DNA of 64,000 nt from Candidatus Kapaibacterium sp. (GTDB lineage: Bacteria > Bacteroidota > Ignavibacteria > Kapaibacteriales > UBA2268). Both the position numbers and the translations under genes were made by a program. The notes beneath the pieces are model-generated. The model worked only from the letters and a program-made list of their open reading frames with translations. It was not told the origin of the DNA and searched no databases. Where the stretch lies: the NCBI GenBank assembly GCA_963665665.1, contig OY762428.1, forward strand, positions 1,056,001 through 1,120,000, in the 5' to 3' direction. The number at the start of each line of letters is the position of its first letter. The stretch's first letter is position 1. Shown piece after piece: positions 4,347 to 21,847 of this stretch.

Positions 4347-4383
4347 CAGAACAGTATTCCTGCTTCGAGGATATTCAATTTAC

Positions 4384-4423
4384 CAAACCATCTCCTGCTG
4401 TCACAGAAGATGGTTTGTTTTTT
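4384..4423 (+). terminator. Rho-independent terminator after the porin gene
   Basis: CAAACCATCT...AGATGGTTTG stem followed by a T-run. Confidence 0.7.
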
Positions 4424-4515
4424 AGTTTGCAATCTTAATTTATTTCAAAATAATATTTTCGTTTCTACTCAGGTTGGTAAATATATTGCTGTTATTGAAG
4501 AAAAATATCGAGAAA

Positions 4516-4607
4516 TGTCATTCTGACCGAGAGCAGCGAGGGAAGAATCCACGTAATATAGCAGAATATGTAGAAGAATGGATACTTCGCTGACGCTCAG
4601 TATGACA
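4516..4607. repeat. REP/MITE-like palindromic element (TGTCATTCTGA...TCAGTATGACA type), copy 1
   Basis: Terminal inverted repeat TGTCATTCTGA / TCAGTATGACA with inner arms GAAGAATCCA / TGGATACTTC. A related copy lies at 61118-61228. Confidence 0.8.
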
Positions 4608-4664
4608 GCTTCCTGCAATTTTATCGAATTTTCATTGTTCAGCTAAATAGTAATATATTTTCTT

Positions 4665-4672
4665 TATATTTG
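4665..4672 (+). promoter_or_regulatory. Bacteroidota-type -7 promoter element TAnnTTTG
   Basis: TATATTTG 33 bp upstream of the ATG at 4706. The same motif lies upstream of genes at 19285-19292 (-), 25752-25759 (-), 31981-31988 (-), 32043-32050 (+), 47896-47903 (-) and 61265-61272 (+). Confidence 0.5.
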
Positions 4673-4705
4673 AAAAATGTATTTTCTGAATCGACGGATT
4701 GAATT

Positions 4706-6220: not shown

Positions 6221-6241
6221 TGCCATCAAAATATTTTCTTC

Positions 6242-6274
6242 AAGCCCGCTATCTTCCGGATAACGGGCTTTTTT
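6242..6274. terminator. Terminator hairpin between convergent genes
   Basis: AAGCCCG-CTATC...GATAA-CGGGCTT followed by TTTT. Confidence 0.7.
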
Positions 6275-6302
6275 AATATTAAATGACATTCCTGAAAGCA
6301 AG

Positions 6303-9300
6303 TCATTTTCCTATAAGAATTTTTTTTGTGAAATATTGATTTCTTGTCATTAAAACAATATAATACACACCGCTGGCAACATCTCGAATATCAGTTTCAA
6401 CACTTCTGATTACGATCTGATCGTTCAAGCCACTATCAATGCTCTTAACTCTCTGGCCATAAATATTGTATATGCATAATTCATAAATCCCATTTTCAAC
6501 CAGGCCGATTTCAATTTTCAGTTTATCCTCTGCCGGATTTGGCGAAATATTTATAATTCCTGATTCCGCAAAAGGATTAACAAGCCGTGCGCCTCCTTCC
6601 CTACAAATATTTGATAAAGTAAATTTACCGTCAATAAAAATAATACTGGCGCTATTTAAATCGTAGATTGGATTGGAAAGAATCAGAGGACACTCTGGGC
6701 TGTTCCCCAAACCTGTAATAAAACGTACACGACTAAGCGTATCGCCCGGCACACCATCGATTATGAGGCTATCTAAGGTTATAGAAGCTTTATAATTATC
6801 AATTAATACCTGTTCATAATCAATTGGGTATAATAAAGAAGGATTATATTCCAGATCAACAGATTCCAATTTGATACCTTCCGGCAATTGGTTTTCTATG
6901 TTTTCAAGAAATATTGGAACACTAATTATCTCGCCGGTTTCTGCCTTTTTATCTGGTATTTTAAGTTGAGCCACAGCTAATGGTATTTCTTCTTTTACTA
7001 TTTCTAAGAGAATTCGAATATTACTTTTCCTTTTGCAAATTGAATCAATTAAATTTAAATTTTCATCAATAATACTTTCGTATGCAATGCCCGGGAAAGA
7101 TATTTTTAAATTCCCAAAGTCCTCTGCCGCAATTACAAATCTGTCCGAATTAAAATCAAAAACTCCGGATCCATCTACAAAGGCTGTGTTTCTTATTGTA
7201 CCATTATTAATCAATTGTATGGTAGTATCAATGGTTTCACCGGTATTGACTGTTCCAAGATCAATAATATCATCTTTCCAATGTATATTAACACTATCTT
7301 TTCTGCCGGTAATTGGAATATTCAATATTGAATCAATGTATGAATTTGAATAAATTGATAGTTCTGCTTCTTTTTCTCCTGTTGTTGATGGCCTAAAAAG
7401 AATATTTACATTTTTAGAACTATCAGGTTCAATTTTAAATGGGAATATCTCGTTAACTACAAAATCCTCTTCATTAATACCTGAAATATTGATATCTTTA
7501 ACAACCAATGTATCCTGTCCAATATTTTCTATATAGATATTAGAATAAATGGCTGGCTCGCATAATAAATTCCCGAAACCGGCAAAAGTGGCGGAAATCT
7601 TCGGAACAACAATGCCCTCACCAAACAATTGTAATTTTGCAGGACTGCCTAAGCCGTCAAAATAAAATTCCAACAAACCGCTTTTTCTTCCTGATCTTAC
7701 CGGAGAAAACCTAATGTCCATCAGCCATTCCTGACCCGGGTTTATTACAAACGGGCCGCCTCCGGAAATTGTTGAGTACTCCTCCTCATTTTGTAATGCA
7801 TATTTAGTCTTAGTAATTCGAACCGGCGAATCGCCAATATTTTTAATAGTTGTTATCTGCAAAGTATCTTTATTTTCTCCGACTACTACCTGGCCGAAAT
7901 CAATCAAATTGTTCAGGATCTCAAGTTTAGGTTCGATTCCTTCCCCGAATATTTTATGACGCAAGGTGTCCGATTGGCTAATAATTATCATCTCAGCCTC
8001 GTATAAAATAGCTTTTTTAGGAGAGAATCTAATTTCACAAAAATGAGAAGCTCCGACCCCTACAGTATATTTTGGGAATCCTGAAACAACAGAAAAAATA
8101 CCCCCACCGATTTTGAAATAAATTGAATCCATTCTACAGGGCCATTCCCCGGTATTAATAACAAAATCAGTAATCAGCGAATCTTTATTACTGCCAACCA
8201 AAACCTGCTTCATATCTATATCAATACTCTCTACAACCGGAGTAACAATTGAAAATAGTGAATCAGAAACATCCATCTGTCCTGGCAATTCCTCAGGATA
8301 TAATTTTGCAACCCAGAAAGAATATCTGCCGTGAGCTTTAACATCTCCGTAATAGGATGAGCTGGGGCCACCGGCAATTATACCTCCGTCCTGTAAAATC
8401 CCTATTGCTGTAAGCCTGTCCCATTTCGGCCCACCAAGATTCTTCTCCCAAAGAATATTACCATCTTTATCAATGTTTACAATCCAAAAATCATAATAAC
8501 CCCAATTATTCTGTACATCGCCATCATTGGAATAAGTATATCCTCCTAAGGTACAACCGTCGTTATATGAATTTACTAATGAATAAGCACAATCATCTTC
8601 GCTTCCACCAAAATTCTTTTTAAATAATATTTTTCCGTTTGAATTTAATTTTATCAGGAAAAAATCTCTGCTTTTTATACCACATAAATAGATATTACCA
8701 AAATCATTAACTTTGATATCGTGTATTTCATTATAATTATCCTTATCAATTAATTTATTCCAGACCAGCTGTCCACTATAGTCAACCTTTATTATCCAGA
8801 ATTTTGAACTTTCAATTTTATTTCCTATATCTCCATCTTCCGAAGAAGTGACTCCTGCAATAATAAAACCACCGTCGATAGTAAGATCAATACAAGAAAT
8901 TTTATCATCCTTACTCCCGCCATAATTCTTTACCCACTGAACATTCATATTCTCATCAGTTTTTATCAGGTAGTAATCATATCCGCCTTTATTTTGTCGA
9001 AAAATGCCATCCGATGAGCTTGATGATATGGCAATAATATTTCCACCGTCATAAGTGTTTTTAATATCAATAAAATCATTAGAACCATTTCCACTAAAGT
9101 TTTTCATTTCAACCACTCTGCCGTCATCTAAAGCATGAGCAATTTCAACAACTCCTTTGTTTGATCTTCCAAAATTAAAGCTACCGTCATTTTTCTCAAT
9201 GCCTCGATAATAGTAAATATCTCTGACCCACAGAGTATTACCATTCTTGTCCAGTTTAAATATACCTTTACCAGAGAGTATTAAACAATTGCCATCAGCG

Positions 9301-10853
9301 AGAGTGATAAATTGATTACAGTTAGCCTCCCCCCCAGAACCTAAACATCTTTGCCATTGAATCTCAGGATTATATTTGTCCTGAATAGGTTTTAGTTCAG
9401 TAATCCTTATTAAGCATTCCTTACTCGGAGCTGACTGAATTTTGTTCCAGTCAAACTTTAGGCCATTAGTTTCTTTTGCAATTATTGACCAGGAGATGCC
9501 ATTGTCGGTACTAAGTTCTATATCAACGCTATCCTGTTCCATCAAACCTTCCCAGGTTACCAATGTATCAGCTCCTGCAAGAAAAACCTCCCCTCCGTTA
9601 GGATGAACAACCTTTAGCACATAGCCATTGGAATTTAAAGTTCTTTCCCCGCCAATAGCATAATAATTAAAATTGCACGGAGCGGCAATAAATTGGAATT
9701 CAACATAAGACAGGCCGGATTTCTCAGGTGTAAAAGTTATTGTAAGCTCTTTGCTTTTTCCCGAATCAAGTAAGAAACTTTTGGGATTTATATCGAAATC
9801 AGGATTGCTGCTTATAATATCTGTAATATTAAACGAACTGTTAATAGCAGTAATAACTAAGCTTGTATCAATCGATTGTCCGGGTTCAATGTTTCCAATT
9901 CTAATAATAGAATATTTATAGGCAATCTTTGCAATCAATTCATCAGGTACGGAATAAACATTTGTTTCAACTTTATTTATCGGCAGACATTCAATTCTGA
10001 GATTTCTATCCTCTTGGCATGATATATCACTTTTCCATGTTATTTCACAGGGTTCTGATGAATAAGCAAACCGAATTATACGATTTACCAAATCATCGAT
10101 CGCCTCTGATTCTGTAATACCGTCATAAAGCATACCATAGGTTGAGTCAGCAATTGTCTTTAAGGAAGATTTTACACCAATATCAGAAGAATTAGATTCT
10201 GAATATATTATTGCAAAAAATTGAATACTATTATTTCTACATAATTCAATGCATTCCTTTACATTATTATCCATATTGCTCCAGTAACCATCTGTATAGA
10301 TAATCGCAACTTTTTTATATTTACCTCTTTTTGCAACATGTATCAAACCTGTATTTGAATTTAGCAACTGTTCATAAATATTTGTTCCCCCACTGGATTC
10401 AAATAACAGCAAGCCATTACGTATTAATTTTCTATCCGTCGTAAAATCCTGAATTATTGATGAATGCGAATCACAAATCAAAAGAGCAGCTTCATTTGGT
10501 GGCATAGGAATTTGATCACATAATCTATTAATAGTTGTTTTTCCTAAATTAATTGGGCTTATATCACTTCTCCCACCCATTGAACCTGAAATATCAATAC
10601 TCATTGTTATTGATAATTTATCAACTTTTGTTTCGGTACAAGTTACATCAATGACTTCCCTCTGAATCCCATCTTCGTAAATGTTAAAATCATCAATAGA
10701 AAAATCTGTCATCTGATTACCAAGAGAATCAAAGGCCCAAAATTTAGCTTTTACAATTGGGAACTCATCTGTATTAATATTAAAAACACTGAATGTTTGA
10801 CCCAAAACCGAATAGGATAGCAGGAAAAAAACAGTAAAAACAATCCTCATCAT
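6303..10853 (-). CDS. Large T9SS-secreted protein: VWA domain, choice-of-anchor-D/ASH Ig-like repeats, beta-propeller-like repeats, cohesin-like domain
   Basis: Signal peptide, MIDAS motif IDISGSMG with GGT and YTDG, repeated DFG.V..G...DT...I.N.G Ig units, W.KN(Y/F/L)GGS..D repeats, and C-terminal ISPNPAED...SGVYYIVL...KKILIGK. GGAGG ribosome-binding site. Confidence 0.85.
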   Translation of the reverse strand: MMRIVFTVFFLLSYSVLGQTFSVFNINTDEFPIVKAKFWAFDSLGNQMTDFSIDDFNIYEDGIQREVIDVTCTETKVDKLSITMSIDISGSMGGRSDISPINLGKTTINRLCDQIPMPPNEAALLICDSHSSIIQDFTTDRKLIRNGLLLFESSGGTNIYEQLLNSNTGLIHVAKRGKYKKVAIIYTDGYWSNMDNNVKECIELCRNNSIQFFAIIYSESNSSDIGVKSSLKTIADSTYGMLYDGITESEAIDDLVNRIIRFAYSSEPCEITWKSDISCQEDRNLRIECLPINKVETNVYSVPDELIAKIAYKYSIIRIGNIEPGQSIDTSLVITAINSSFNITDIISSNPDFDINPKSFLLDSGKSKELTITFTPEKSGLSYVEFQFIAAPCNFNYYAIGGERTLNSNGYVLKVVHPNGGEVFLAGADTLVTWEGLMEQDSVDIELSTDNGISWSIIAKETNGLKFDWNKIQSAPSKECLIRITELKPIQDKYNPEIQWQRCLGSGGEANCNQFITLADGNCLILSGKGIFKLDKNGNTLWVRDIYYYRGIEKNDGSFNFGRSNKGVVEIAHALDDGRVVEMKNFSGNGSNDFIDIKNTYDGGNIIAISSSSSDGIFRQNKGGYDYYLIKTDENMNVQWVKNYGGSKDDKISCIDLTIDGGFIIAGVTSSEDGDIGNKIESSKFWIIKVDYSGQLVWNKLIDKDNYNEIHDIKVNDFGNIYLCGIKSRDFFLIKLNSNGKILFKKNFGGSEDDCAYSLVNSYNDGCTLGGYTYSNDGDVQNNWGYYDFWIVNIDKDGNILWEKNLGGPKWDRLTAIGILQDGGIIAGGPSSSYYGDVKAHGRYSFWVAKLYPEELPGQMDVSDSLFSIVTPVVESIDIDMKQVLVGSNKDSLITDFVINTGEWPCRMDSIYFKIGGGIFSVVSGFPKYTVGVGASHFCEIRFSPKKAILYEAEMIIISQSDTLRHKIFGEGIEPKLEILNNLIDFGQVVVGENKDTLQITTIKNIGDSPVRITKTKYALQNEEEYSTISGGGPFVINPGQEWLMDIRFSPVRSGRKSGLLEFYFDGLGSPAKLQLFGEGIVVPKISATFAGFGNLLCEPAIYSNIYIENIGQDTLVVKDINISGINEEDFVVNEIFPFKIEPDSSKNVNILFRPSTTGEKEAELSIYSNSYIDSILNIPITGRKDSVNIHWKDDIIDLGTVNTGETIDTTIQLINNGTIRNTAFVDGSGVFDFNSDRFVIAAEDFGNLKISFPGIAYESIIDENLNLIDSICKRKSNIRILLEIVKEEIPLAVAQLKIPDKKAETGEIISVPIFLENIENQLPEGIKLESVDLEYNPSLLYPIDYEQVLIDNYKASITLDSLIIDGVPGDTLSRVRFITGLGNSPECPLILSNPIYDLNSASIIFIDGKFTLSNICREGGARLVNPFAESGIINISPNPAEDKLKIEIGLVENGIYELCIYNIYGQRVKSIDSGLNDQIVIRSVETDIRDVASGVYYIVLMTRNQYFTKKILIGK

Positions 10854-11050
10854 AAACCCTCCACCGGTAATATAAATTACGTTATAATTTTACAACAAAT
10901 TAAAATCATTAAAGTTTCAATTTTTAATATTTTTTTAATACTATAACAATGAACAACTGATATTTCCAAGATTTGAAAAATATCCAAAACACTAACCATC
11001 ATTGAATCTCGTATTCAATTATGGGAGTATTTCATTATGTGGTGTGTATT

Positions 11051-12151
11051 ATGAAGTTTCATTTCTTTATTTTTTTTCTTTTGATTAGCTCATATGCAAA
11101 AGCATCCGACAGCACTGGTATTATACATATTGCCGATAAGATTTTTAAACCGATAAATGAAGATAACACTAAACTGGAATGGATGCCTCTTGCCAATTAT
11201 GATTCGGATCTTGGATTCGGATTTGGCACAAAGGGATTTTATTTAAATCCTTTTGATCATGATGAATCATTTGATCTGATACTATTTGCAAGTACCGGAG
11301 GCGAAAGGCTCATACGGTTCACGTTTTCTTATCCGGATATTGAAACAAGGCAGGGCACAGAATACCCGCTGGCCGTTGATTTCCTAATAGATATCAACCC
11401 GCTGACTATTACTTATGCCTATTCGACAAATATGCTCCAAAGCAAAGATTATGATGCAAAATACAGGGATATACCAATATTATTAAGCCTTGTTTTCAGC
11501 CGGGGTTTTTCCGAAGAATTTGTTGGAAGTGCTGCCCTCAGATATAATTATCTGAGCTATGACAAATTCAATCCAAGACATGATGCAGTCGCGCTTTATG
11601 ATGATGATGTATATTCAGCACCTTCAATTTTTCTAAACCTGTTTCTCGATAAAAGAGACAGCCATATCAGGCCTACAGAAGGATATAAACTCAGCGCCGA
11701 GACGGAATTATACCTGACTGATTTCGATCCTTCTGAAAGATTCACCCGTATAATGACCGAAGCCGCCTATTATAAAAAATTTCTAAACTACTTTATTTTT
11801 GCAACAAGAATTCAGTACAATACTTATTTGGAATCATCGCCGCCATTTCAGCTGCAACACAAACTGGGTGGCAATAAAACTCTCAGAGGCTATCCCAGGT
11901 ATTATTTCCGCGGGCGCTCTACACTTCTATCAAATACTGAAATCCGGGTAACTCTCCCCTATAATTTAGGTTTAATTATGGGGGCCGACGCCGGAAAGGC
12001 ATGGGATACTACTCCGGACAACCTGAAGGACGCTGCATCGAATTTTATTTCAGGGTTGCGTTACTTTTTTAAAACATTTGTTGTAGGCTTTGATTTGGGA
12101 TTCAGTGAAAATCACATAGGTGCATACTTTAGCTTCGGGCATCTATTTTAA
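11051..12151 (+). CDS. BamA/TamA (Omp85 surface antigen) family outer-membrane protein
   Basis: Signal peptide, PLANYDSDLGFGFG, DKRDSHIRPTEG, LGGNKTLRGY (cf. VRGF/Y motif), C-terminal FSFGHLF. ATG at 11051. Confidence 0.85.
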   Translation: MKFHFFIFFLLISSYAKASDSTGIIHIADKIFKPINEDNTKLEWMPLANYDSDLGFGFGTKGFYLNPFDHDESFDLILFASTGGERLIRFTFSYPDIETRQGTEYPLAVDFLIDINPLTITYAYSTNMLQSKDYDAKYRDIPILLSLVFSRGFSEEFVGSAALRYNYLSYDKFNPRHDAVALYDDDVYSAPSIFLNLFLDKRDSHIRPTEGYKLSAETELYLTDFDPSERFTRIMTEAAYYKKFLNYFIFATRIQYNTYLESSPPFQLQHKLGGNKTLRGYPRYYFRGRSTLLSNTEIRVTLPYNLGLIMGADAGKAWDTTPDNLKDAASNFISGLRYFFKTFVVGFDLGFSENHIGAYFSFGHLF

Positions 12152-12200: not shown

Positions 12201-14117
12201 TTACTCTGCTGATGGGAGGTTCTTATTATCCTTCTGTGTTGCAAGTGAAACAATTATCAGAACAACAAGAGCCAGCGTAAATGATATAATTGCAGGATTG
12301 TCCAGCATGTGCGGAGCGTTTGCACTATCAAGCCCATAACGGTCCCACATCGTTGGTGATGTAAGAATAATGCCGAGAGCTGAAACGATACCAGTCAGAA
12401 TGGACCAGGCAATGCCTTTTGCAGTTGTTTTCTTCCAGAACAACAACATCAATATTGCCGGCAGGTTAGCTGAAGCAGCAACAGCAAATGCCCACCCGAC
12501 AAGGAAAGACACATTCATCCCCTTGAAAGCAATACCAAGAACAATAGCAACAATACCAACGGAAAATGCAGCTATCTTACCTGCTTTTACTTTCTTGTCG
12601 TCACTAAGGTTTTTACCCATGTATTTATCGATTATATCGTGGGCAATGGCACCGGATGAAGCAACAATCAAACCGCTGACAGTTCCGAGGATTGTGGCAA
12701 ACGCTATTGCCGAAATGATAGAAAACAATCCCACCCCGAAGGCTTTAGCAAGCAACGGAGCAGACATATTACTGGATTCCACGTCAAGAACCCCGTTTAC
12801 AGCAGCACCAAGGCCCATGAACATAGTCAGTACATAAAAACCGCCAATAGCAGCAATTGCAATAATTGTAGATTTACGGGCATCTTTTGCACTTGGAACA
12901 GTATAATACCTGATAAGGATATGCGGCAATGAAGCCGTACCGAGGAAGAGTGCAAGCATAAGTGATACGAAATTCCATTTCGACCAGGAGTTGGCTCCTT
13001 CGCCGATTTTAAATTTCAGGCCGGGAATCATCATCGCTTTACCGGATGTTATATTCTGATACCATACCGTTATATTGTTCCCTTCATCATCAAATTTTAC
13101 TTTTGAGAACCTTACAATTTCACTATTCTCAATTGTTTCCAGAAATTCAAACGGCCCCAAAGGTCCGGTCTCTGAAACTTCCTCGCCATCAACAATGATT
13201 TTGCTCATATGCCCGACAGGAAAGAATTTTCTTGCTTCTTTATCTTCCCCATTATAAAGCTTTCTACCGTCAGCCATATCGCTTATTGAAAGCATTTCTT
13301 TCAAAGTTGGTTTTCCTTCTACATCTACGAGATTAAACCACCTTATTACTCCTGCTTTCTCAAGCTTTACAAATTGATGGCCTTTAATTTCTTTTGTCCC
13401 AAGAACTTTATATCCGTCAACACTTATTGTGTTGCTTTCAATAACCGCTGTCAGGCTGATAAATTCATGATATTTCTGCTCTTCATTATCAGGCTGTAAA
13501 CTGAAACCGTTATTAAAAATGTAAAAAGACAATATAGTTGAGAAAATCAACAGAAGGCCGCCTTTGATAAACTGCACGTAAGTTGTGGAGGTCATACCGG
13601 CTGTAGCTACTATGAAAATAACAATAGCCCCGACAATAACAACACCAACCCAGTGTGGCAGTCCAAGCAGCGGAGTTACGAGTGCCCCGGCACCAACCAT
13701 CTGTGGAATAAGATAAAATATTGAAACTATCAAAGTGCTGATAGCCGCAGTTATCTGAATTGCTTTTGAATTGAATTTTGAATCCAAAGCATCTGTAAAA
13801 GTGAACTTCCCAAGTCGTTTCAAAGGTTCCGCTACCAGGAATAAAGCCACAATCCAGCCTGCAAGATAGCCAATGGAATAAAGAAAACCGTCATAACCCA
13901 TAAATGCGATCATACCGCAAATACCAAGGAATGATGCAGCAGACAAATAATCTCCTGCAAAAGCAATACCGTTCACTGCCCAGTGAATGGTTCCCCCGGC
14001 TGCAAAATAATTTTGAGCTGATTTTGTTTTACGGGCGAAATAAAAAGATAGGCCCAGAACAAAAGCTACAAAAATTACAAATAAAATTACTGCAAAGGGT
14101 GAAGCTTCATAAATCAT
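12201..14117 (-). CDS. actP: Cation/acetate symporter ActP (sodium:solute symporter family)
   Basis: NGIAFAGDYLSAASFLG, GYDGFLYSIG, LVAEPLKRLGKFTFTD, FYLIPQMVGAG, GTASLPHILIRYYTVP, AFAVAASANLP. Lies downstream of a DUF485 gene, as is typical. Confidence 0.88.
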   Translation of the reverse strand: MIYEASPFAVILFVIFVAFVLGLSFYFARKTKSAQNYFAAGGTIHWAVNGIAFAGDYLSAASFLGICGMIAFMGYDGFLYSIGYLAGWIVALFLVAEPLKRLGKFTFTDALDSKFNSKAIQITAAISTLIVSIFYLIPQMVGAGALVTPLLGLPHWVGVVIVGAIVIFIVATAGMTSTTYVQFIKGGLLLIFSTILSFYIFNNGFSLQPDNEEQKYHEFISLTAVIESNTISVDGYKVLGTKEIKGHQFVKLEKAGVIRWFNLVDVEGKPTLKEMLSISDMADGRKLYNGEDKEARKFFPVGHMSKIIVDGEEVSETGPLGPFEFLETIENSEIVRFSKVKFDDEGNNITVWYQNITSGKAMMIPGLKFKIGEGANSWSKWNFVSLMLALFLGTASLPHILIRYYTVPSAKDARKSTIIAIAAIGGFYVLTMFMGLGAAVNGVLDVESSNMSAPLLAKAFGVGLFSIISAIAFATILGTVSGLIVASSGAIAHDIIDKYMGKNLSDDKKVKAGKIAAFSVGIVAIVLGIAFKGMNVSFLVGWAFAVAASANLPAILMLLFWKKTTAKGIAWSILTGIVSALGIILTSPTMWDRYGLDSANAPHMLDNPAIISFTLALVVLIIVSLATQKDNKNLPSAE

Positions 14118-14395
14118 AATTCTTCCTCTTTGTTCATTCGATCTTCATATTTCGTACATATCATGTTGTAAACAACTCCAAGAATTATTGCCAGGATGAT
14201 CAGGCCGAAACCATAAGTAACAGCAAGGTTTTGTCCCATAAATACGATTTCACTCATTGCCTCGAAATTGATAACAGCAATTGCAACGAAAATGGAATAC
14301 ACGATAAAATAAAGGATAAAAAGCCAAACCCCCAATTTTGCCTTCTTTTCCGCAGCATTGTCCTTACCCATTTGAACTGCCGGACCATGTTGCAT
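14114..14395 (-). CDS. DUF485 (YjcH-like) small membrane protein
   Basis: 93 aa with two transmembrane segments and the NLAVTYGFGLI motif. Its stop overlaps the actP start by 4 bp. GGAGG ribosome-binding site. Confidence 0.85.
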   Translation of the reverse strand: MQHGPAVQMGKDNAAEKKAKLGVWLFILYFIVYSIFVAIAVINFEAMSEIVFMGQNLAVTYGFGLIILAIILGVVYNMICTKYEDRMNKEEEL

Positions 14396-14639
14396 GTTGA
14401 CCTCCGAAAAAAATTAATAAATGAACGTCTGCGACGCTAAAAAATAAGTTCCGAAGATAAGTCTTTCGGCTGATTGCTAACTGCATTATTTTTATTCTAT
14501 GTACTGCGTGTTGCTAAATGCTATTATCCGATATAAATATTTTGAAATAATTCCCATACTTCAATTTCAGGTGGATAGTTATTAATTTTTTCCCTAATTT
14601 TAAATGATAAGCAAATATTTTCCAATATTGGATCATTAG

Positions 14640-17435
14640 ATGAAAATATCCGAACATGCAGCCAGCAGTGAAAAACAAACAGGTATAAGAGGTGAAGATA
14701 TCCATAAATGGATTGACGGATTCTTTGATTACCAGGGCCTGAAACAATTCCTGAAAGCCGAGAATAACAGGAAATACGATCCATACGGGCATCGAAAATA
14801 CCGTCACTGCTATGAAGCATTGGAAGAAGCTTATATTGAGTTCGAACACAAATATACCCGCGAACAGATAAAATCAGTTTTCGAATGTCATATCAAAGAT
14901 GACTATGACGGCTATCTGCCAACCAGGGATGATTTTATTAATGGGACTTTTAAGGAAAAATATCATGAGGAAGAGAGGGTGGGGCAGGATGATTCCATTT
15001 TAAGCCCTGAGGAACTGAATCAATACTTCAAAGGAAAAAGATATTCAAAATTCAGGTCGCCAAATAGAAAAATTTCTTCTTTTTTCAGGTTGAAGATTGT
15101 AATGCCGACAGTAGTAGCAATTGTTCTTTTTGTTAGTTCTGTTTTTGCAATTATCATCCCGGTGTTCAGAACAAACATCATGGATAAGAAAAAAGAAATG
15201 ATTAAAGAACTAACAGTTGCGGCTATAAGTATTATTGATGAAAAAGTGAAGCTCTATCAATCCGGCAAACTAACTCTGGCTGAAGCTCAGAACCTTGCTC
15301 TTAAGGAAATTGACGGCATGAGATACGGGGATGAGATGAAAGATTATTTCTGGATTACAGATATGCATCCAACCATGCTGATGCACCCCTACAGAACCGA
15401 ACTGACTGGCAAAGATCTTTCAAATTATAAGGATCGGGAAAACAAAAGCGGCAAACGATTATTTGTTGAATTTGTTAATATCGTTAAGAAAGACGGCGAG
15501 GGCTACCTTCAGTACCTGTGGCAATGGAAGGATGATTCCACAAGGATTGCCCCAAAGTTGTCCTATGTCAGGGGGATTAAAGAATGGGGATGGATTATCG
15601 GCACGGGTATATATATTAACGATGTAACTGATGAAATAAATGATCTTTCCTTTAATCTTTTTATGGTTTTCCTTCTGATTTCAATAGTTCTTATCGGGCT
15701 TCTGACCTATGTTATCATGCAGAGCTTTAAAATTGACAGGGAATTGATCAAAGCCGAATCAGGACTGCGTGAAGCTAAAAATCGTTACAGGGCTTTAGTG
15801 GAAGCTTCCAACGAAGGGCATGTTCTTGTTATGGATGGAAGAAATGTTTATTCAAATCATACATTCAAGAAATTATTCGGGCTGTCAGAAAGTGAAATAA
15901 TATCAAAAAACATTTCAGAAATAATACCCGGGGATATTGGATCAAATAAAAAAGCAATTGAAAAACTCAGAGAAATTGCTAATGGCAATATTTCTGAAAC
16001 TGAATTTGAAGCTCAGATAAAATCGCCTGATAAAAAAATCATTAATGTAATATTTTCAACTTCGAAAATTTTCTTCTCTCAGAAAAAAGGCTGCATTATT
16101 TCAGTCAGGCCGATTGTAAGGAAAAAAATAAACTTCCTTTTGGAATCTTATGGGAATACCAAATACCATCCCGGCTCTTTATTTGTTTCTAAAAAGGCAG
16201 GAGAGCTTTGCAGGCCGTTTACATCAGACAGCTCTTTGGATAGCAATCCTGTTAAAGTAGGTTCAAATACAACTGTCTTTGAAGTACTGGCAATTATGAA
16301 CCACAAGAAGAAAGATAGGCTTTACGTTGTGGACAGCGAGGAAAAAATTACAGGAATTATTGGCTACTATGATATTGCCATGATGTATGCCGGTTTGCCT
16401 ACAGGTATCTTATACGAAATTCGTCACAGCAGCAATATGGGCAACATAGTCAAAACTTTGGAGCGAATGCCTGAAATGGTTCTGGAATTCACGCGCCAGG
16501 GAGCTTCATCTGAAGTAATAAGGGATAGTGTTGGTAAAGTCTATGAAACAGCAATTAGAAAAATAATAATATTATCACTTAAGGAAGTAGAACTTCCGGA
16601 TGTTAAATTTACATTTTTATCGCTTGGAAGCACTGCCCGTCACGAGATGACACTGTTTTCCGATCAGGATAATGCTCTGATTTTTGAGGATGTTGATAAT
16701 AAAGACCTTCAGATAGTAAGAATGCAGTTCCTTAACTTTGCTGACAAAGTATGTTCGAAAATGCAAAAAGCCGGATATCCCTATTGCCCCGGAGGAATAA
16801 TGGCGGTTAACCCGAAATGGTGTTTATCATTATCTGAATGGAAACAGCAATTTAAAAGATGGATTTATGCAGCTACCCCCGAATCGCTCCTGGGAATACA
16901 TGTTTTCTTTGATATTGAACCTGTTTATGGCGATATGAAACTGATGGACAGTTTGAATGATAATATTAAGGTACTGATAAGGGACAGGCCGGAATTCTTT
17001 GTTCACTATGCCCGAAATTGCCTGTCATACAGGGAACCACTATCGTTTCTCGGGAACATTAGCACTAAAACAAAGGACGGAGTTAAAACCATCAACCTGA
17101 AAGAATGCCTGATGCCGATTGTAAATTTTGCAAGGATATACGCTCTTCGATATCATTTTACCGTACCAGGAACAAAATCCAGGCTTGAGGAACTGCTGAA
17201 ACATAGCATCCTTCAGGAAAAATCATTTCACGAGCTGATTTATCTTTTCAATCATTTATGGCATCTTCGATTTTACAACCAAATGGTGGCACATGAAGGT
17301 TTAAGAGCTGTCAATGACGAACTTGATATCAATTATCTAACGGAAATTGAAAAATCAAACCTTAAAAATATTTTATCAGAAATTTCAAAATTTCAGTCGA
17401 AAATCAATTACGATTTTCTTGGAGGATCAGTATAA
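14640..17435 (+). CDS. Membrane sensor-nucleotidyltransferase: His-rich N-terminal domain, TM, single Cache domain, TM, PAS, CBS, DUF294 nucleotidyltransferase, DUF294_C
   Basis: Cache motifs MRYG...DYFWITD...MLMHPY...GKRLFVEFV...GEGYLQYLW...PKLSYV...WGWIIGTGIY. PAS entry RYRALVEASNEG. CBS VVDSEEKITGIIG. Nucleotidyltransferase LGSTARHEMTLFSDQDNAL, YCPGGIMAVNPKW, INLKE...PIVNFARIYAL. Confidence 0.85.
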   Translation: MKISEHAASSEKQTGIRGEDIHKWIDGFFDYQGLKQFLKAENNRKYDPYGHRKYRHCYEALEEAYIEFEHKYTREQIKSVFECHIKDDYDGYLPTRDDFINGTFKEKYHEEERVGQDDSILSPEELNQYFKGKRYSKFRSPNRKISSFFRLKIVMPTVVAIVLFVSSVFAIIIPVFRTNIMDKKKEMIKELTVAAISIIDEKVKLYQSGKLTLAEAQNLALKEIDGMRYGDEMKDYFWITDMHPTMLMHPYRTELTGKDLSNYKDRENKSGKRLFVEFVNIVKKDGEGYLQYLWQWKDDSTRIAPKLSYVRGIKEWGWIIGTGIYINDVTDEINDLSFNLFMVFLLISIVLIGLLTYVIMQSFKIDRELIKAESGLREAKNRYRALVEASNEGHVLVMDGRNVYSNHTFKKLFGLSESEIISKNISEIIPGDIGSNKKAIEKLREIANGNISETEFEAQIKSPDKKIINVIFSTSKIFFSQKKGCIISVRPIVRKKINFLLESYGNTKYHPGSLFVSKKAGELCRPFTSDSSLDSNPVKVGSNTTVFEVLAIMNHKKKDRLYVVDSEEKITGIIGYYDIAMMYAGLPTGILYEIRHSSNMGNIVKTLERMPEMVLEFTRQGASSEVIRDSVGKVYETAIRKIIILSLKEVELPDVKFTFLSLGSTARHEMTLFSDQDNALIFEDVDNKDLQIVRMQFLNFADKVCSKMQKAGYPYCPGGIMAVNPKWCLSLSEWKQQFKRWIYAATPESLLGIHVFFDIEPVYGDMKLMDSLNDNIKVLIRDRPEFFVHYARNCLSYREPLSFLGNISTKTKDGVKTINLKECLMPIVNFARIYALRYHFTVPGTKSRLEELLKHSILQEKSFHELIYLFNHLWHLRFYNQMVAHEGLRAVNDELDINYLTEIEKSNLKNILSEISKFQSKINYDFLGGSV

Positions 17436-19599: not shown

Positions 19600-20715
19600 A
19601 TGAGGGAATTTTCGTATATATTTGTCTTTCTTGTTATTCTGTATTCCTGTGATAATTCCTCCGGAAATAATATTGACAAGTTTTCAGACCTTGAAATTCA
19701 GGTTATCAGTTATGCCGATTCCCTGATTGAAACCAACAATATACCCGGAATATATATATCCTATTCCGAATCAGGCGATAGAAAATGGAGCTGCAGAAGA
19801 GGCAAGGCGAATATATCAGGCAACGCAGCTATTGATCCTGATAACTACTTCAGAATTGGTTCTATTACTAAAACATTCACTGCTTCATTGATCTGGATGC
19901 TGATTGAAGAAGGCAGGATAAGCCCTGACGACTGTCTCCCGGATTTTCAACTTGATAATATAGATACAAACCGGATACTTCATTCAAAATTCATCACCGT
20001 CAGGCAATTGCTGAACATGACAAGCGGCCTGTACAATTATTCAGAAAACGAGGAAATTCAAACCTTGTTTAATCATCCGGAAAAGAGCTATACTCCGCAG
20101 GAATTAATACAAATGGCTTATGATAAAAGCCCGACAGATTTTCCAGGGCAGTCTTATTATTACAATAATACATCCTATGTTCTGCTGGGTTTAATAATTG
20201 AAAAGATAACCGGGAAAAAGATAGAAGATTATCAGAAAGAAAAAATCCTTGCCCCCTATTCACTGAATAATACATTCTATCCTGAAAGCTCTGAACTGCC
20301 CGAACCATTTACATGCGGATATATTCATTATAATGGTAAAAATATTGATTTTACGGTTCAGTATCCCAGTTGGGCATGGTCTGCCGGAGCAATGGTCTCA
20401 ACCTTATCTGATATGGAAAAATGGAGCCTGATCCTTGCCGGTGGAAAGTTCCTTCAGCAGGAAACCATCAAGGAAAGAAATAAGTGGATTGAAGCTATTC
20501 ACGGGATTGATACGGTTTATTACGGCGGGGGTATTTTCAAATTTATGGACTATTACGGCCATTCGGGGGATATTCCCGGCTATATGAGTATAATCATGAG
20601 TAATCCCGACAATAAAAGAACGATAGTTATATCAATGAATAATAACAATGCAAGTATTATCACTGTATTTAAAAATGTACTAACCCTGATCGAAAGGCAT
20701 TACAATGAAAATTAA
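19600..20715 (+). CDS. Serine hydrolase lipoprotein (beta-lactamase class C / D-Ala-D-Ala carboxypeptidase family)
   Basis: Lipobox ILYSC, FRIGSITKTF (SxxK), LLNMTSG, YYYNNTSY (YxN), AGAMVST, GHSG. Confidence 0.88.
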   Translation: MREFSYIFVFLVILYSCDNSSGNNIDKFSDLEIQVISYADSLIETNNIPGIYISYSESGDRKWSCRRGKANISGNAAIDPDNYFRIGSITKTFTASLIWMLIEEGRISPDDCLPDFQLDNIDTNRILHSKFITVRQLLNMTSGLYNYSENEEIQTLFNHPEKSYTPQELIQMAYDKSPTDFPGQSYYYNNTSYVLLGLIIEKITGKKIEDYQKEKILAPYSLNNTFYPESSELPEPFTCGYIHYNGKNIDFTVQYPSWAWSAGAMVSTLSDMEKWSLILAGGKFLQQETIKERNKWIEAIHGIDTVYYGGGIFKFMDYYGHSGDIPGYMSIIMSNPDNKRTIVISMNNNNASIITVFKNVLTLIERHYNEN

Positions 20716-21847
20716 ATATTTTCTGATTTTGGTGATTTTATTAATTAGCAGCTGCAGCGACGACGATAGTTCAGATAAAAATGTATTTACTGAAGAAACT
20801 CAGGAAAAGATAAAATTCATTGTCGACTCCATAGTTGCCGAAAAAGATATCCCAGGAGCCATAATGGCTGTATGGTATGGCGATAAGGGAAGCATGATAT
20901 ATACTACCGGATACTCCGACCTGGAAAACGAAACGCCAATGGAATCAGGATTGAAATTCAGAATTGGAAGCGTAACGAAAACATTCACGGCATCGGTTGT
21001 TTTTCAATTGGTTGAGGAAGGCAAACTCTCGCTTGATGATAAACTGAACAGCTTCCAACTTGATAATATCGAGATGGATTCTATTCCATATTCCAATATT
21101 ATTACTATCGACCAACTGCTGAAAATGACGAGCGGCCTGTATGATTATGCGGATTCGTCCCAGATGTATATTCTTGCAACCGAACCAACGAGACACTGGA
21201 CTGAATCAGAACTAATCCAATATATCTATGGAAAAGAGCCTTATGCCCTGCCCGGTGTGATGTACCACTATACAAATACTGCTTACGACCTGCTCGGGCT
21301 TATTGTTGAAAAGATCACCGGTAATACAATAAAGGAAGAAATTGAAAGTAGGTTTATCTCGAAATTAAATCTGCAAAATACGAGTTTCCCTGATCCGAAT
21401 GACGCATATCTTCTTGAACCCCATGCCGAAGGGTATTATTACTTCCCGGAGGAAAGCAGGCAAATTAACTTCACGGTGCAGGATGTTGGCTGGGCAGGAG
21501 CTGCCGGAGCAATGATATCCAATATCAACGACCTTAGAATTTGGGTTAAGGCGCTTAACGACTGCAGCCTTATTTCAAAGGAGATGACAGATAAACGCTA
21601 TGACTGGCGAACAATGGATACTGATTATGCATTCTATGGCGGCGGATTGATGAAAGTTCTCGGATTTGTAGGCCACTCCGGTGGTATTCCCGGTTTCACA
21701 AATATCACTATGAGAAATGAAAGCGCCGACCTTACAATTATTGTAATGACAAACTATTATGATATCAGGCCGGAACGCATTGGCGGGCCAGAGCATACAT
21801 TCATGAGAATTGTTGAAACAATTGCTCCTGAACTTATTAACAAATAA
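20705..21847 (+). CDS. Serine hydrolase lipoprotein, tandem paralogue of the upstream gene
   Basis: Lipobox LISSC, FRIGSVTKTF, LLKMTSG, YHYTNTAY, AGAMISN, GHSG. Overlaps the previous gene by 11 bp. Confidence 0.88.
   Translation: MKIKYFLILVILLISSCSDDDSSDKNVFTEETQEKIKFIVDSIVAEKDIPGAIMAVWYGDKGSMIYTTGYSDLENETPMESGLKFRIGSVTKTFTASVVFQLVEEGKLSLDDKLNSFQLDNIEMDSIPYSNIITIDQLLKMTSGLYDYADSSQMYILATEPTRHWTESELIQYIYGKEPYALPGVMYHYTNTAYDLLGLIVEKITGNTIKEEIESRFISKLNLQNTSFPDPNDAYLLEPHAEGYYYFPEESRQINFTVQDVGWAGAAGAMISNINDLRIWVKALNDCSLISKEMTDKRYDWRTMDTDYAFYGGGLMKVLGFVGHSGGIPGFTNITMRNESADLTIIVMTNYYDIRPERIGGPEHTFMRIVETIAPELINK

Follow-up and report, generated by a model that had tools for sequence, protein, structure and literature searches.

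The locus raises the question of what a predicted nucleotidyltransferase might do at the cytoplasmic end of a membrane receptor that is encoded beside an acetate-type symporter. In the window analysed, a stretch of 64,000 nucleotides of Candidatus Kapaibacterium DNA, the gene of a 931-aa membrane receptor (14640..17435, + strand) is transcribed divergently from an overlapping gene pair (12201-14395, - strand). The pair consists of a small DUF485 (YjcH-like) membrane protein of 93 aa with two TM segments (14114..14395, - strand; Pfam DUF485 2.7e-8, 34.1 bits against a cut-off of 28) and, immediately downstream with a 4-nt overlap, an ActP/MctC-like sodium:solute symporter of 638 aa (12201..14117, - strand; Pfam SSF 2.9e-67). 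The open reading frames, the length of the receptor and the 244-bp divergent gap described in the first-pass annotation agree with the orf list and the sequence. The start codon of the receptor gene is taken to be right because the N-terminal sequence MKISEH is kept in an alignment of 24 homologues. The intergenic region (14396..14639) contains two imperfect direct repeats, TTGCTAAnTGC with copies 37 nt apart and AAATATTTTnnAATA with copies 78 nt apart. The neighbours of the receptor gene in the window are DUF485/ActP upstream and iPGM downstream, and no gene for an RNase_T (DEDDh) exonuclease adjoins it.

A genome-wide search of the 5.46-Mb genome found one DUF294 gene, four SSF genes and one DUF485 gene, and the sole DUF294 gene sits 244 bp from the sole DUF485-actP pair. 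This adjacency exceeds chance, for which a rough estimate is <1e-3. The symporter matches the NCBIfam models for MctC (1.2e-134, 449.7 bits against a cut-off of 670) and ActP (PRK09395; 2.8e-123, 412.2 bits against 750), each match being split into two stretches by an insert of ~150 aa; since both scores fall below cut-off, it is named only ActP/MctC-like.

Domain organization of the receptor

The protein had been described as beginning with a TM helix, followed by Cache, TM, PAS, CBS, DUF294 and DUF294_C. HMM searches uphold the order from Cache to the C-terminus, but the N-terminus is a cytoplasmic domain (residues 1 to ~154) rather than a TM helix. This conserved, DUF6915-like domain with invariant histidine and aspartate residues had been overlooked. 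Its His/Asp-rich part (residues 1-110; 14640..14969, + strand) is a putative metal-dependent phosphoesterase. Hydrophobic segments at residues 158-176 (15111..15167, + strand; hydropathy window score 2.94) and 341-359 (15660..15716, + strand; score 2.84) bracket a periplasmic sCache_2 sensor (residues 181-335; 15180..15644, + strand; Pfam 6.3e-40, 137.1 bits against a cut-off of 25). On the cytoplasmic side follow a PAS domain (residues 382-486; 15783..16097, + strand; Pfam PAS 2.6e-7, TIGR00229 8.7e-11), a single CBS motif (residues 535-580; 16242..16379, + strand; Pfam CBS 4.4e-8), a DUF294 pol-beta-type nucleotidyltransferase domain (residues 609-748; 16464..16883, + strand; Pfam 4.1e-41) and a helical, degenerate HEPN-like substrate-binding domain, DUF294_C (residues 785-926; 16992..17417, + strand; Pfam 1.9e-29). 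The Pfam matches of the protein include no kinase, cyclase or DNA-binding family, as had been stated, and the same scan found no HD or ACT domain and no cNMP-binding domain (PF00027).

The suggestion that the CBS region senses the energy state is not supported. Pfam detects one CBS stretch in this protein and no Bateman pair, and of 24 aligned close relatives 10 have the insert that carries this stretch and 14 do not. Two CBS stretches were found in seven of eight scanned membrane Cache-DUF294 receptors without the N-terminal domain (hereafter type B), the eighth (L055) having one, and two are also present in the soluble relatives scanned.

The carboxylate sensor

A sequence search of the PDB placed the sensor nearest to the sCache domains of Adeh_3718 (4k08_A, 7.7e-29) and PscD (5g4y_A, 2.5e-27), and a profile search gave E-values of 1.5e-38 and 1.2e-37, respectively. 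PscD is reported to bind acetate, glycolate and propionate with KD values of 31 uM, 23 uM and 101 uM through Tyr90, Trp92, His103, Phe126, Tyr143, Trp145 and Lys156 (PMC5062169), and the acetate contacts reported for Adeh_3718 are Tyr94, Trp96, His107, Leu129, Phe130, Phe133, Tyr147, Trp149 and Lys160 (PMC3831638). These ligand-contact residues are all identical or aligned in the 931-aa protein, where the pocket consists of a carboxylate-binding set (Y236, H249, Y292, K306), two stacking tryptophans (W238, W294) and a hydrophobic back wall (L274, F275, F278). Across 24 homologues, each of the nine is either invariant or conserved to at least 90%. The earlier proposal that an external short carboxylate is sensed is thus supported as a prediction from sequence, every pocket residue of the solved acetate/propionate-binding domains being kept. 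The outputs differ: PscD and Adeh_3718 have an MCP signalling domain, whereas the protein described here, whose ligand is predicted, has a nucleotidyltransferase.

The TM-Cache-TM region (residues 157-356) also matches the NCBIfam equivalog model for MctS (E 2.6e-23, 82 bits against a cut-off of 700). Monocarboxylate SSF permeases are under the control of sensor kinases such as MctS (of MctSR) and CrbS/MxtR. The 931-aa receptor likewise adjoins such a permease, but it lacks the HisKA and HATPase domains of the kinases and has the nucleotidyltransferase as output instead.

The nucleotidyltransferase module

The GS...DxD motif is intact, as had been noted: GSTARHEMTLFSDQDN begins at residue 663. 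The full signature (G663 S664 x10 D675 Q D677, with D758 as the third carboxylate) is strictly kept in 32 sequences drawn from all architectures, as are K821, R832, R848 and R877 of DUF294_C. Searches of the PDB with the DUF294 part by sequence or profile gave nothing at E <=1. An AF2 model of DUF294 plus DUF294_C (pLDDT 92.7, pTM 0.89) was superposed by VIA-align on the N-terminal domain of GlnE (1v4a_A; Z 26.7, 302 residues aligned, rmsd 2.9), on DrrA (6yx5_B; Z 26.0, 296 aligned) and on the C-terminal domain of GlnE (3k7d_B; Z 25.6, 303 aligned), the next other proteins being HEPN domains and an aminoglycoside nucleotidyltransferase at Z ~9. The Foldseek E-values of the GlnE/DrrA matches are 2.2e-9, 4.2e-7 and 1.5e-6; TUTase, mitochondrial PAP and HalB match at E 0.2 or worse, or at Z 6.5. 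The invariant catalytic residues and the modelled fold support the earlier reading of an intact GlnE-type output, with predicted activity. The best match, GlnE-N, is a de-adenylylating domain, so the fold alone does not tell the direction of the reaction.

GlnE (1v4a, 3k7d) and the AMPylation domain of Legionella DrrA/SidM (6yx5, 3nku) are protein-tyrosine AMPylases that share with the 931-aa protein the G-S...D-x-D motif and the combination of a pol-beta nucleotidyltransferase with a helical substrate-binding domain (296-303 residues superposed), at a sequence identity of only 11-14%. Unlike them, the receptor has a membrane sensor input, and it lacks the second nucleotidyltransferase repeat of GlnE. 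In GlnD, the PII uridylyltransferase and uridylyl-removing enzyme, a single polypeptide carries a nucleotidyltransferase as writer and a metal-dependent hydrolase as eraser, together with domains that sense ligands. The likeness to GlnD is one of concept, accompanied by weak GlnD_UR_UTase Pfam matches on the DUF294_C of relatives; the receptor differs in being membrane-bound without HD or ACT, and its proposed eraser is DUF6915. DUF294_C has been grouped with the C-terminal domains of GlnD and GlnE and described as lacking the HEPN Rx4-6H motif (PMC3710099). The MntA-HepT (MNT/HEPN) system resembles the module in that a nucleotidyltransferase works with a HEPN-type helical domain, MntA being reported as an adenylyltransferase that chemically modifies HepT (PMC7641770), but HEPN chains match only the C-terminal domain of the module (Z 7.7-9) and the receptor has no toxin context. 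By analogy, a protein-bound oligo-AMP chain, as named in the title of PMC13000451, could make erasers of exonuclease type intelligible.

Soluble relatives

The first-pass annotation presented the protein as a candidate new signalling system, which overstates its novelty, as it is a membrane variant of the long-annotated, uncharacterised COG2905 proteins (Pflu5625, PP_0354/PP_0353, PA3233/PA3232). These are soluble, with the order cNMP_binding, CBS pair, DUF294, DUF294_C and an adjacent RNase_T-like exonuclease, and they belong to CrbS/R (MxtR/ErdR) acetate regulons. The 931-aa protein shares with them the DUF294 plus DUF294_C module with identical invariant residues, and both keep the company of SSF symporters, small subunits, acetate-CoA ligase and a phosphoesterase-type partner. 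Input to the soluble forms is through cytoplasmic cNMP and Bateman domains, and their DEDDh exonuclease is encoded by a gene of its own, whereas the 931-aa protein has DUF6915, two TM segments, sCache_2, PAS and one CBS motif, and the exonuclease neighbour is absent. Among the relatives scanned, Pfam found the cNMP-binding domain in the soluble proteins of loci L015, L030 and L004, and in L004 the RNase_T exonuclease directly follows the soluble form. In a quick tree, the module of the 931-aa protein belongs to a deep clade separate from the soluble forms (SH-aLRT 100, branch 0.91); the motif is GS-x-AR-H-E/D-MT-x-FSDQDN in the membrane clade versus GS-x-GR-x-EQTL-x-TDQDN in soluble COG2905.

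Published observations link the soluble forms to short-chain acids. DUF294/COG2905 genes are described as co-induced with acetate and propionate uptake genes in pseudomonads (PMC5715377; 10.64898/2026.09.07.749794), and DUF4212/SSF mutants as cofit with neighbouring COG2905/RNase T genes (10.1101/072470). Deletion of PP_0353/PP_0354 is reported to slow growth on propionate and pyruvate moderately (10.64898/2026.09.07.749794), and loss of Pflu5625 to change growth on acetate only negligibly (PMC5715377). The searched literature, in which the names DUF294, PF03445, PF10335 and DUF294_C are rare, yielded no biochemical activity for any DUF294 protein and no paper that joins a Cache domain, a nucleotidyltransferase, CBS and signal transduction.

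The N-terminal DUF6915-like domain

The N-terminal region (residues 1 to ~154) is the best-conserved part of the 931-aa protein in 24 homologues. When residues 1-150 were scanned alone, Pfam returned DUF6915 (PF21866) at E 6.3e-5, with 23.5 bits against a cut-off of 27. The three nearest Atlas clusters shown are all DUF6915 (0.96-0.97), and the ten best clusters with a family assignment share one family or clan. A chain of phmmer searches ties the domain to stand-alone proteins, of which P0160, P0166, P0167 and P0168 match DUF6915, P0160 and P0167 above cut-off. H6, H22, D26, R52, H56, F68, H84 and D88 are invariant, and H51 is at least 90% conserved, in 16 sequences that include fused and stand-alone forms. 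The stand-alone proteins are 106-120 aa long, and the Atlas clusters nearest to the N-terminal domain are mostly viral. P0160 matches phrog_8143, a PHROG of unknown function; the N-terminal domain itself matched no PHROG. DUF6915 is also carried alone by phages and plasmids.

The model of the domain is all-alpha and of middling confidence (pLDDT 68.5). Foldseek against the PDB gave nothing at E <=0.001 (best E 3.8), and the top VIA-align score among 48,161 chains was Z 5.2, no better than noise when the model is helical; with a model of this quality the searches show neither a new fold nor the lack of a known one. A complex prediction for the nucleotidyltransferase module with residues 1-135 gave no answer (score 0.00) and carries no weight either way.

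Partners across the family

Homologues are numerous: a search with the 931-aa protein alone retrieved, among 8000 candidates, 2612 proteins at E <=0.001 from many phyla. The same single query against genome contigs gave 13 loci, of which a single one encodes a full relative, and the survey of gene neighbourhoods is based on metagenome contigs with 52 non-redundant membrane Cache-DUF294 proteins. Within the available flanks, an SSF symporter (ActP/DUF485 or VC_2705/DUF4212) is near 33 of the 52 (median distance 700 nt) and a DUF3360 membrane protein is near six; where at least 5 kb of flank was available on both sides, one or the other is encoded in 23 of 25 cases. The link to monocarboxylate symporters is thus real across the family, but in the protein's own N-domain subfamily an SSF symporter is near only 3 of 13 non-redundant members and a DUF3360 membrane protein is found instead in 5 of 13. 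Several relatives' loci also bear a separate Cache-type orf and a sigma-54 response regulator.

One putative phosphoesterase, never two, is fused to or adjoins the receptor in 45 of the 52: the DUF6915 N-domain in 13, a fused or abutting PHP domain in 8, a same-strand adjacent Metallophos gene in 11, and AP_endonuc_2 (an EndoIV-like TIM barrel) within 2 kb in 13. Metallophos, PHP or AP_endonuc_2 accompanies none of the 13 receptors with the DUF6915 domain versus 32 of the 39 without it. Type-B clusters L071, L083 and L094 have adequate flanks and no phosphoesterase partner. At the cytoplasmic N-terminus, the DUF6915 domain stands where long type-B proteins have the PHP domain (5 of 5 scanned), and all four long DUF6915-bearing representatives scanned are Cache-DUF294 proteins. 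Two genomes of the same family encode, at the equivalent actP locus, a DUF485-ActP pair (65% identical) and after it Metallophos and an N-domain-less receptor. That relatives have a PHP fusion or a separate phosphoesterase gene nearby in place of the N-domain points to a writer/eraser pair. The quick tree places the N-domain forms in one clade and needs ~9 changes in all for six partner labels, so the exclusivity of partners rests on few evolutionary events.

A possible mechanism and its alternatives

It is somewhat short of an even chance, in our estimation, that the protein is a receptor for C2/C3 carboxylates and reversibly nucleotidylylates a regulator of monocarboxylate uptake, the mark being erased by DUF6915. 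As a one-component transmembrane receptor, it would bind acetate, propionate or glycolate in its periplasmic sCache_2 domain and relay the signal through TM2 and PAS to the cytoplasmic GlnE/DrrA-type nucleotidyltransferase (DUF294 plus DUF294_C). This module would transfer an NMP from an NTP to a hydroxyl, most likely of tyrosine, on a protein that governs the uptake or use of monocarboxylates, and the His/Asp domain, likewise cytoplasmic, may be a metal-dependent phosphoesterase that erases the NMP mark. With an opposed writer and eraser in one receptor, ligand occupancy would set the balance between writing and erasing. The proposal draws on the domain anatomy and topology, the conserved pocket and catalytic residues, the likeness in fold to protein AMPylases, the genomic links to symporters and phosphoesterases and the genetics of the soluble relatives. 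It counts against it that partners of exonuclease type (RNase_T, PHP, EndoIV-like) suit nucleic acids or oligonucleotides as substrates no less than a protein-NMP bond. Further points against it are the negligible effect of the Pflu5625 deletion, the middling DUF6915 model, the few evolutionary events behind the exclusivity of partners, the three type-B clusters that lack a partner, the small share of N-domain receptors beside an SSF symporter and the de-adenylylating role of the best fold match. The broader prospect, that ligand-gated protein nucleotidylylation is a further transmembrane signalling chemistry beside phosphorylation, methylation and second messengers, in which an AMPylase or UMPylase switched by acetate or propionate marks the uptake machinery and DUF6915 is a new metal-dependent de-nucleotidylase fold, is unlikely.

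Membrane receptors with enzymatic output usually produce second messengers, and the RNase_T, PHP, Metallophos and EndoIV-like families include enzymes that cut nucleotides and oligonucleotides. Both facts favour a diffusible nucleotide as the signal (an oligonucleotide, linear or cyclic, or an NMP adduct of a small molecule), made by the nucleotidyltransferase in response to external carboxylate and degraded by the fused or adjacent phosphoesterase in the manner of cyclase/phosphodiesterase pairs; the cNMP-binding domain of the soluble relatives is a further point for it. Yet the module superposes over its entire 300 residues on GlnE and DrrA, which are protein AMPylases (Z 25.6-26.7), nucleotidyltransferases that form nucleic acids or oligonucleotides matched only at Foldseek E >=0.2 or Z 6.5, and the neighbourhoods contain no recurrent receptor protein for such a signal. 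This reading is quite improbable. Pol-beta nucleotidyltransferases also include RNA-tailing enzymes, and the module might instead extend RNA (or DNA) at its 3' end, with an exonuclease-type partner trimming the added nucleotides, in post-transcriptional control of the symporter operon. Partners of RNase_T type are described as 3'-5' exonucleases (10.64898/2026.09.07.749794), but the closest folds are GlnE and DrrA rather than CCA-adding enzymes, poly(A) polymerases or TUTases, and a membrane tether with an extracellular sensor would be unusual for an RNA-modifying enzyme; we regard RNA tailing as very improbable.

A less radical departure, which we hold to be rather unlikely, keeps the receptor and its nucleotidyltransferase as proposed and makes DUF6915 a metal, redox or gas sensor or a regulatory or docking domain, the mark being removed by the nucleotidyltransferase fold itself, as in the N-terminal domain of GlnE, or by an unlinked enzyme. 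Five invariant histidines and two aspartates suit a metal centre for sensing no less than one for catalysis, the small stand-alone forms and the mostly viral nearest Atlas clusters have no link to a nucleotidyltransferase, and the top fold match of the module is the de-adenylylating GlnE-N domain. Against this stand the position shared with PHP, the failure of DUF6915 to co-occur with the other phosphoesterases, the replacement of the N-domain form by Metallophos and a type-B receptor at the equivalent actP locus of the two same-family relatives, and the restriction of long DUF6915-bearing representatives, among those scanned, to Cache-DUF294 proteins.

Candidate targets

For the preferred reading, in which a protein is nucleotidylylated, ActP, DUF485 and acetyl-CoA synthetase had been named as targets. 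The last is not supported in this genome, in which no acetate-CoA ligase reached cut-off with two NCBIfam models (TIGR02188, best 108 bits against 725; NF003313, best 142 against 729). The ~150-aa insert of the symporter (residues 203-354; 13056..13511, - strand), recognized as the gap between the matched stretches, lies between hydrophobic segments 6 and 7 and matches no family. It was considered as a target or docking site. Hydropathy and the topology of the LeuT fold predict it to be periplasmic, and on this ground it was rejected as the receptor's target. It is a trait of a large subfamily of ~638-aa symporters (271 clusters, the named ones mostly Bacteroidota) and not specific to the receptor. 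An alignment of 20 DUF485 sequences contains no clearly cytoplasmic invariant tyrosine and so provides no lead to a target.

Significance

DUF294/COG2905 enzymes are widespread, yet neither substrate nor activity was found for them in the searched literature. The membrane forms add a predicted ligand that the soluble forms lack, so that a controlled in-vitro test becomes possible. If the writer/eraser reading is true, it would account for a conserved and puzzling part of bacterial short-chain-acid regulons. The fused DUF6915 domain stands where relatives bear known phosphoesterase folds, which provides a first functional hypothesis for DUF6915.

Gene organization and domain structure

The DUF485 gene (93 aa, 14114-14395, minus strand) overlaps the SSF symporter gene (638 aa, 12201-14117, minus strand) by 4 nt and is separated by a 244-bp gap from the divergently transcribed gene of a 931-aa receptor (14640-17435, plus strand). 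When the open reading frames of the window were re-checked, the coordinates, intergenic gap, protein length and nucleotidyltransferase motif of the first-pass annotation all proved correct. The symporter is a strong match to the NCBIfam models of MctC (450 bits, cut-off 670) and ActP (412 bits, cut-off 750) but stays below both cut-offs because the match is broken in two by an insert of ~150 aa (residues 203-354; 13056-13511, minus strand) that belongs to no matched family and lies between hydrophobic segments 6 and 7, a predicted periplasmic position. The same insert marks a subfamily of ~638-aa 'cation acetate symporters' (271 clusters, the named members mainly Bacteroidota). Two imperfect direct repeats occur in the divergent intergenic region (14474-14521 and 14535-14627), TTGCTAAnTGC spaced 37 nt and AAATATTTTnnAATA spaced 78 nt; possible explanations are operator sites and coincidence in AT-rich DNA.

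The receptor, on the plus strand, consists by Pfam of sCache_2 (residues 181-335, 6.3e-40), PAS (residues 382-486), a single CBS motif (residues 535-580), DUF294 (residues 609-748, 4.1e-41) and DUF294_C (residues 785-926, 1.9e-29). Hydrophobic segments (residues 158-176 and 341-359) flank the Cache domain on both sides, placing it in the periplasm and both termini of the protein in the cytoplasm. This is the domain order first proposed (TM-Cache-TM-PAS-CBS-DUF294-DUF294_C), except that a further domain ahead of the first transmembrane segment had been overlooked; in keeping with the first-pass annotation, Pfam lists no kinase, cyclase or DNA-binding domain in the 931 residues. The stretch containing CBS is kept in just 10 of 24 aligned homologues, and therefore CBS, previously taken as an energy-state input, does not define the receptor subfamily.

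The sCache_2-DUF294 architecture is common: both domains are present in all of the best 120 of 2612 matches, those named among the 120 being Delongbacteria, Cloacimonetes, Kiritimatiellales, Planctomycetota, Verrucomicrobiota, Fibrobacterales and KSB1. Rather than the candidate new signalling system first proposed, the receptor is a membrane variant of COG2905 (soluble cNMP-CBS-DUF294-DUF294_C proteins), a real and intact representative of a widespread, annotated but unstudied family. In the literature searched, no paper linked a Cache domain with a nucleotidyltransferase, CBS and signal transduction, and DUF294 and COG2905 were seldom named.

Sensor domain

In sequence searches of the PDB, the receptor finds no relatives beyond four sCache chemoreceptor domains, of which 4k08_A and 5g4y_A are best. 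PscD (5g4y/5g4z) was reported to bind acetate, glycolate, propionate and pyruvate with KD values of 31, 23, 101 and 356 uM, contacting the ligand through Tyr90, Trp92, His103, Phe126, Tyr143, Trp145 and Lys156 (PMC5062169), and in Adeh_3718 (4k08) an acetate ion is described as held by the equivalent residues plus Leu129 and Phe133 (PMC3831638). The aligned counterparts in the receptor are Y236, W238, H249, L274, F275, F278, Y292, W294 and K306, and these nine pocket residues are invariant or nearly so in 24 homologues. A C2/C3 monocarboxylate is therefore strongly predicted from sequence as the ligand, an assignment of class that is probably right.

Survey of relatives and their transporter genes

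For a survey of gene neighborhoods, the best 80 loci of 556 relatives were taken from a metagenome scan, orfs were called by a simple longest-ORF rule in the window, in L001 and in the 80 loci, 66 membrane Cache-DUF294 orfs were grouped into 52 clusters at 80% identity, and neighboring genes were scored by tblastn with fixed thresholds. Thirteen of the 52 clusters resemble the receptor of the window (type A), possessing its N-terminal domain and the motif GS-x-AR-H-E/D-MT-x-FSDQDN; the other 39 (type B) lack this domain, usually have two PAS and two CBS domains, and carry the motif GS-x-GR-x-EQTL-x-TDQDN. One metagenome lineage (L030, L031; also L035, L064) packs as many as four DUF294 genes into 18 kb, encoding a soluble cNMP-CBS protein (629 aa), type B (830 aa), type A (889 aa) and one more Cache form (831 aa), accompanied by a Usp gene and a DUF3360 gene.

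Across the family, the architecture is linked to monocarboxylate symporters. An ActP-type symporter (at least 38% identical) is near 21 of the 52 clusters, the majority of the 21 also having a DUF485 match, and a VC_2705-family symporter (TIGR03648, 487 bits against a cut-off of 321) with its DUF4212 small subunit (TIGR03647) is near 13; one cluster has both kinds, so that an SSF symporter accompanies 33/52 at a median distance of 700 nt. DUF3360 proteins, with ~10-11 hydrophobic segments, are encoded near six of the 52. Where both flanks reach 5 kb or more (25 clusters), an SSF or DUF3360 gene is present in 23. At three near-identical loci, an acetate-CoA ligase gene (764 bits, cut-off 729) follows ActP. 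The tie to SSF is looser for type A (SSF in 3/13, DUF3360 in 5/13). At type A loci without SSF (L032, L034, L037, L038, L041, L079), the DUF3360 gene lies divergently ~230-370 nt upstream of the receptor, which suggests that DUF3360 (486 aa, Pfam 3e-250 at type A loci) acts as a transporter and is controlled in a similar way. At 17 loci (cluster 3), L044 (6074-7297) among them, the symporter genes have a recurrent neighbor encoding a ~407-aa protein that carries a signal peptide and matches nothing in Pfam or NCBIfam; this protein is a candidate outer-membrane channel for the symporter substrates.

Among the soluble relatives, Pflu5625 is reported to belong to the CrbS/R regulon and its deletion to hardly change growth on acetate; its authors cite a predicted regulation through nucleotidylation (PMC5715377). 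PA3232-PA3235 were up ~16-fold on propionate (PMC9765439), PP_0353/PP_0354 were reported to have the strongest MxtR/ErdR dependence (10.64898/2026.09.07.749794), and in RB-TnSeq data DUF4212/SSF genes were cofit with adjoining COG2905/RNase T genes (10.1101/072470). The receptor is probably tied functionally to monocarboxylate transport.

The N-terminal domain and its phosphoesterase counterparts

The most conserved part of the receptor in the alignment of 24 homologues is residues 1-~135, before the first transmembrane helix. Scanned alone, this domain matches DUF6915 in Pfam (E 6.3e-5, slightly below the gathering score), and in a language-model atlas it falls among DUF6915 clusters (0.97) that are mainly phage-derived, the DUF6915 clusters of the atlas being chiefly viral. 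Residues 1-140 retrieved 46 clusters from 1.84 billion representatives; the four long, full-length matches that were scanned are all Cache-DUF294 proteins, and the short matches are stand-alone proteins of 106-120 aa. H6, H22, D26, R52, H56, H84 and D88 are invariant in fused and stand-alone forms, and this His/Asp set is the pattern expected of a metal site. The set is shared by the stand-alone DUF6915 proteins P0145-P0168; a variant of 176-227 aa has a hydrophobic C-terminal extension. The AF2 model of the domain consists entirely of helices and is moderately confident (pLDDT 68.5).

This domain is present throughout type A (13/13), and no type A cluster has a partner of another type. Type B clusters have instead a same-strand Metallophos gene no more than 200 nt away (11/39), a PHP domain fused N-terminally or abutting (8/39; Pfam-confirmed on all five long proteins scanned), or an AP_endonuc_2 TIM-barrel gene within 2 kb (13/39) that matches the NCBIfam models of CbiR phosphodiesterase, sugar epimerases and endonuclease IV best, though each far below its cut-off. 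Among the seven without a partner, one lies directly against a type A gene, two run off a contig end and one has flanks under 700 nt, leaving three true exceptions (L071, L083, L094). Two partner types were never found in one of the 52 clusters. Beside the soluble cNMP-CBS-DUF294 gene of Gaetbulibacter (L004), an RNase_T exonuclease gene begins 2 nt after it, and genes for acetyl-CoA synthetase, a two-component pair and an SSF protein are in the vicinity.

A quick maximum likelihood tree of the catalytic module (53 rows: 50 clusters and three soluble paralogues, two truncated clusters being left out) unites type A in a single group with full support and a long branch. Two changes are required for the AP_endonuc_2 label, two for PHP and seven for Metallophos, and all six partner labels together require ~9 changes compared with 32 when shuffled; partner exclusivity therefore goes back to a few replacements rather than to 52 separate trials. 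One replacement can be seen in close relatives. Two genomes of the same family have, in a row, DUF485 and ActP (65% identical), with or without a porin-like gene, followed by Metallophos and type B. Type A is absent from all 40 relatives; in the source genome, a type A gene adjoins the only DUF485-ActP pair. We infer that these actP loci are orthologous. The window newly contributes an actP locus at which a DUF6915-bearing type A replaces Metallophos plus type B in situ, and the clade structure of partner switches.

Catalytic module and proposed function

G663, S664, R667, D675, Q676, D677, N678 and D758, together with four basic residues of DUF294_C, are invariant in 32 sequences of every architecture. 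Sequence search detected no solved structure for the DUF294 module. A confident AF2 model of residues 589-931 (pLDDT 92.7, pTM 0.89) superposes over ~300 residues on the GlnE N-terminal domain (Z 26.7, rmsd 2.9), DrrA in complex with Rab8a (Z 26.0) and the GlnE adenylylating domain (Z 25.6), with concordant Foldseek matches (E 2.2e-9 to 1.5e-6); after partial DrrA chains come HEPN domains and an aminoglycoside nucleotidyltransferase at Z ~9. The receptor is probably an active GlnE/DrrA-like transferase.

All three top fold matches act on protein tyrosine, and mainly for this reason a protein is the preferred substrate, at a little under an even chance. RNA 3′-end tailing by the module is very improbable, the RNA-tailing enzymes being far weaker structural matches, and synthesis of a nucleotide second messenger is improbable. 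The best case for such nucleic-acid and oligonucleotide products is made by the exonuclease-type partners, which would also suit the shortening of an oligo-NMP chain attached to a protein, such as that reported for MNT-HEPN systems (PMC13000451). It is tentatively proposed, with nearly even prospects, that external carboxylate would gate the receptor, that the receptor would reversibly nucleotidylylate a protein involved in monocarboxylate uptake, and that the DUF6915 domain would take the mark off. That DUF6915 is a hydrolase is possible, though somewhat doubtful; a non-catalytic DUF6915, with which the rest of the model can stand, is rather unlikely.

Acetyl-CoA synthetase, previously suggested as a target, was not found in the source genome (G000), which has no acetate-CoA ligase at cut-off (best 108 bits for TIGR02188, 142 bits for NF003313). 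The ActP insert was rejected as a target on account of its predicted periplasmic position, and DUF485 offers no obvious cytoplasmic invariant tyrosine. The genome nevertheless encodes an ActP-like importer, and acetate may be activated another way.

Other genes of the window

A 1540-aa protein encoded 8.5 kb downstream of the receptor (25927-30549, plus strand) has an AMP-binding acyl-CoA-ligase-type domain (1.1e-50) and a C-terminal GNAT acetyltransferase. Tandem genes of beta-lactamase fold (serine hydrolase/PBP-like, 371 and 380 aa, 19600-21847, plus strand) overlap at their ends and look like a local duplication. Upstream of actP (3102-12151) is a neighborhood of cell-surface genes, encoding two proteins with T9SS C-terminal sorting domains (an Ig-repeat/VWA protein of 1516 aa and one of 504 aa), a Porin_O_P protein and an Omp85-family protein, which fits an FCB-group (Bacteroidota-like) host.
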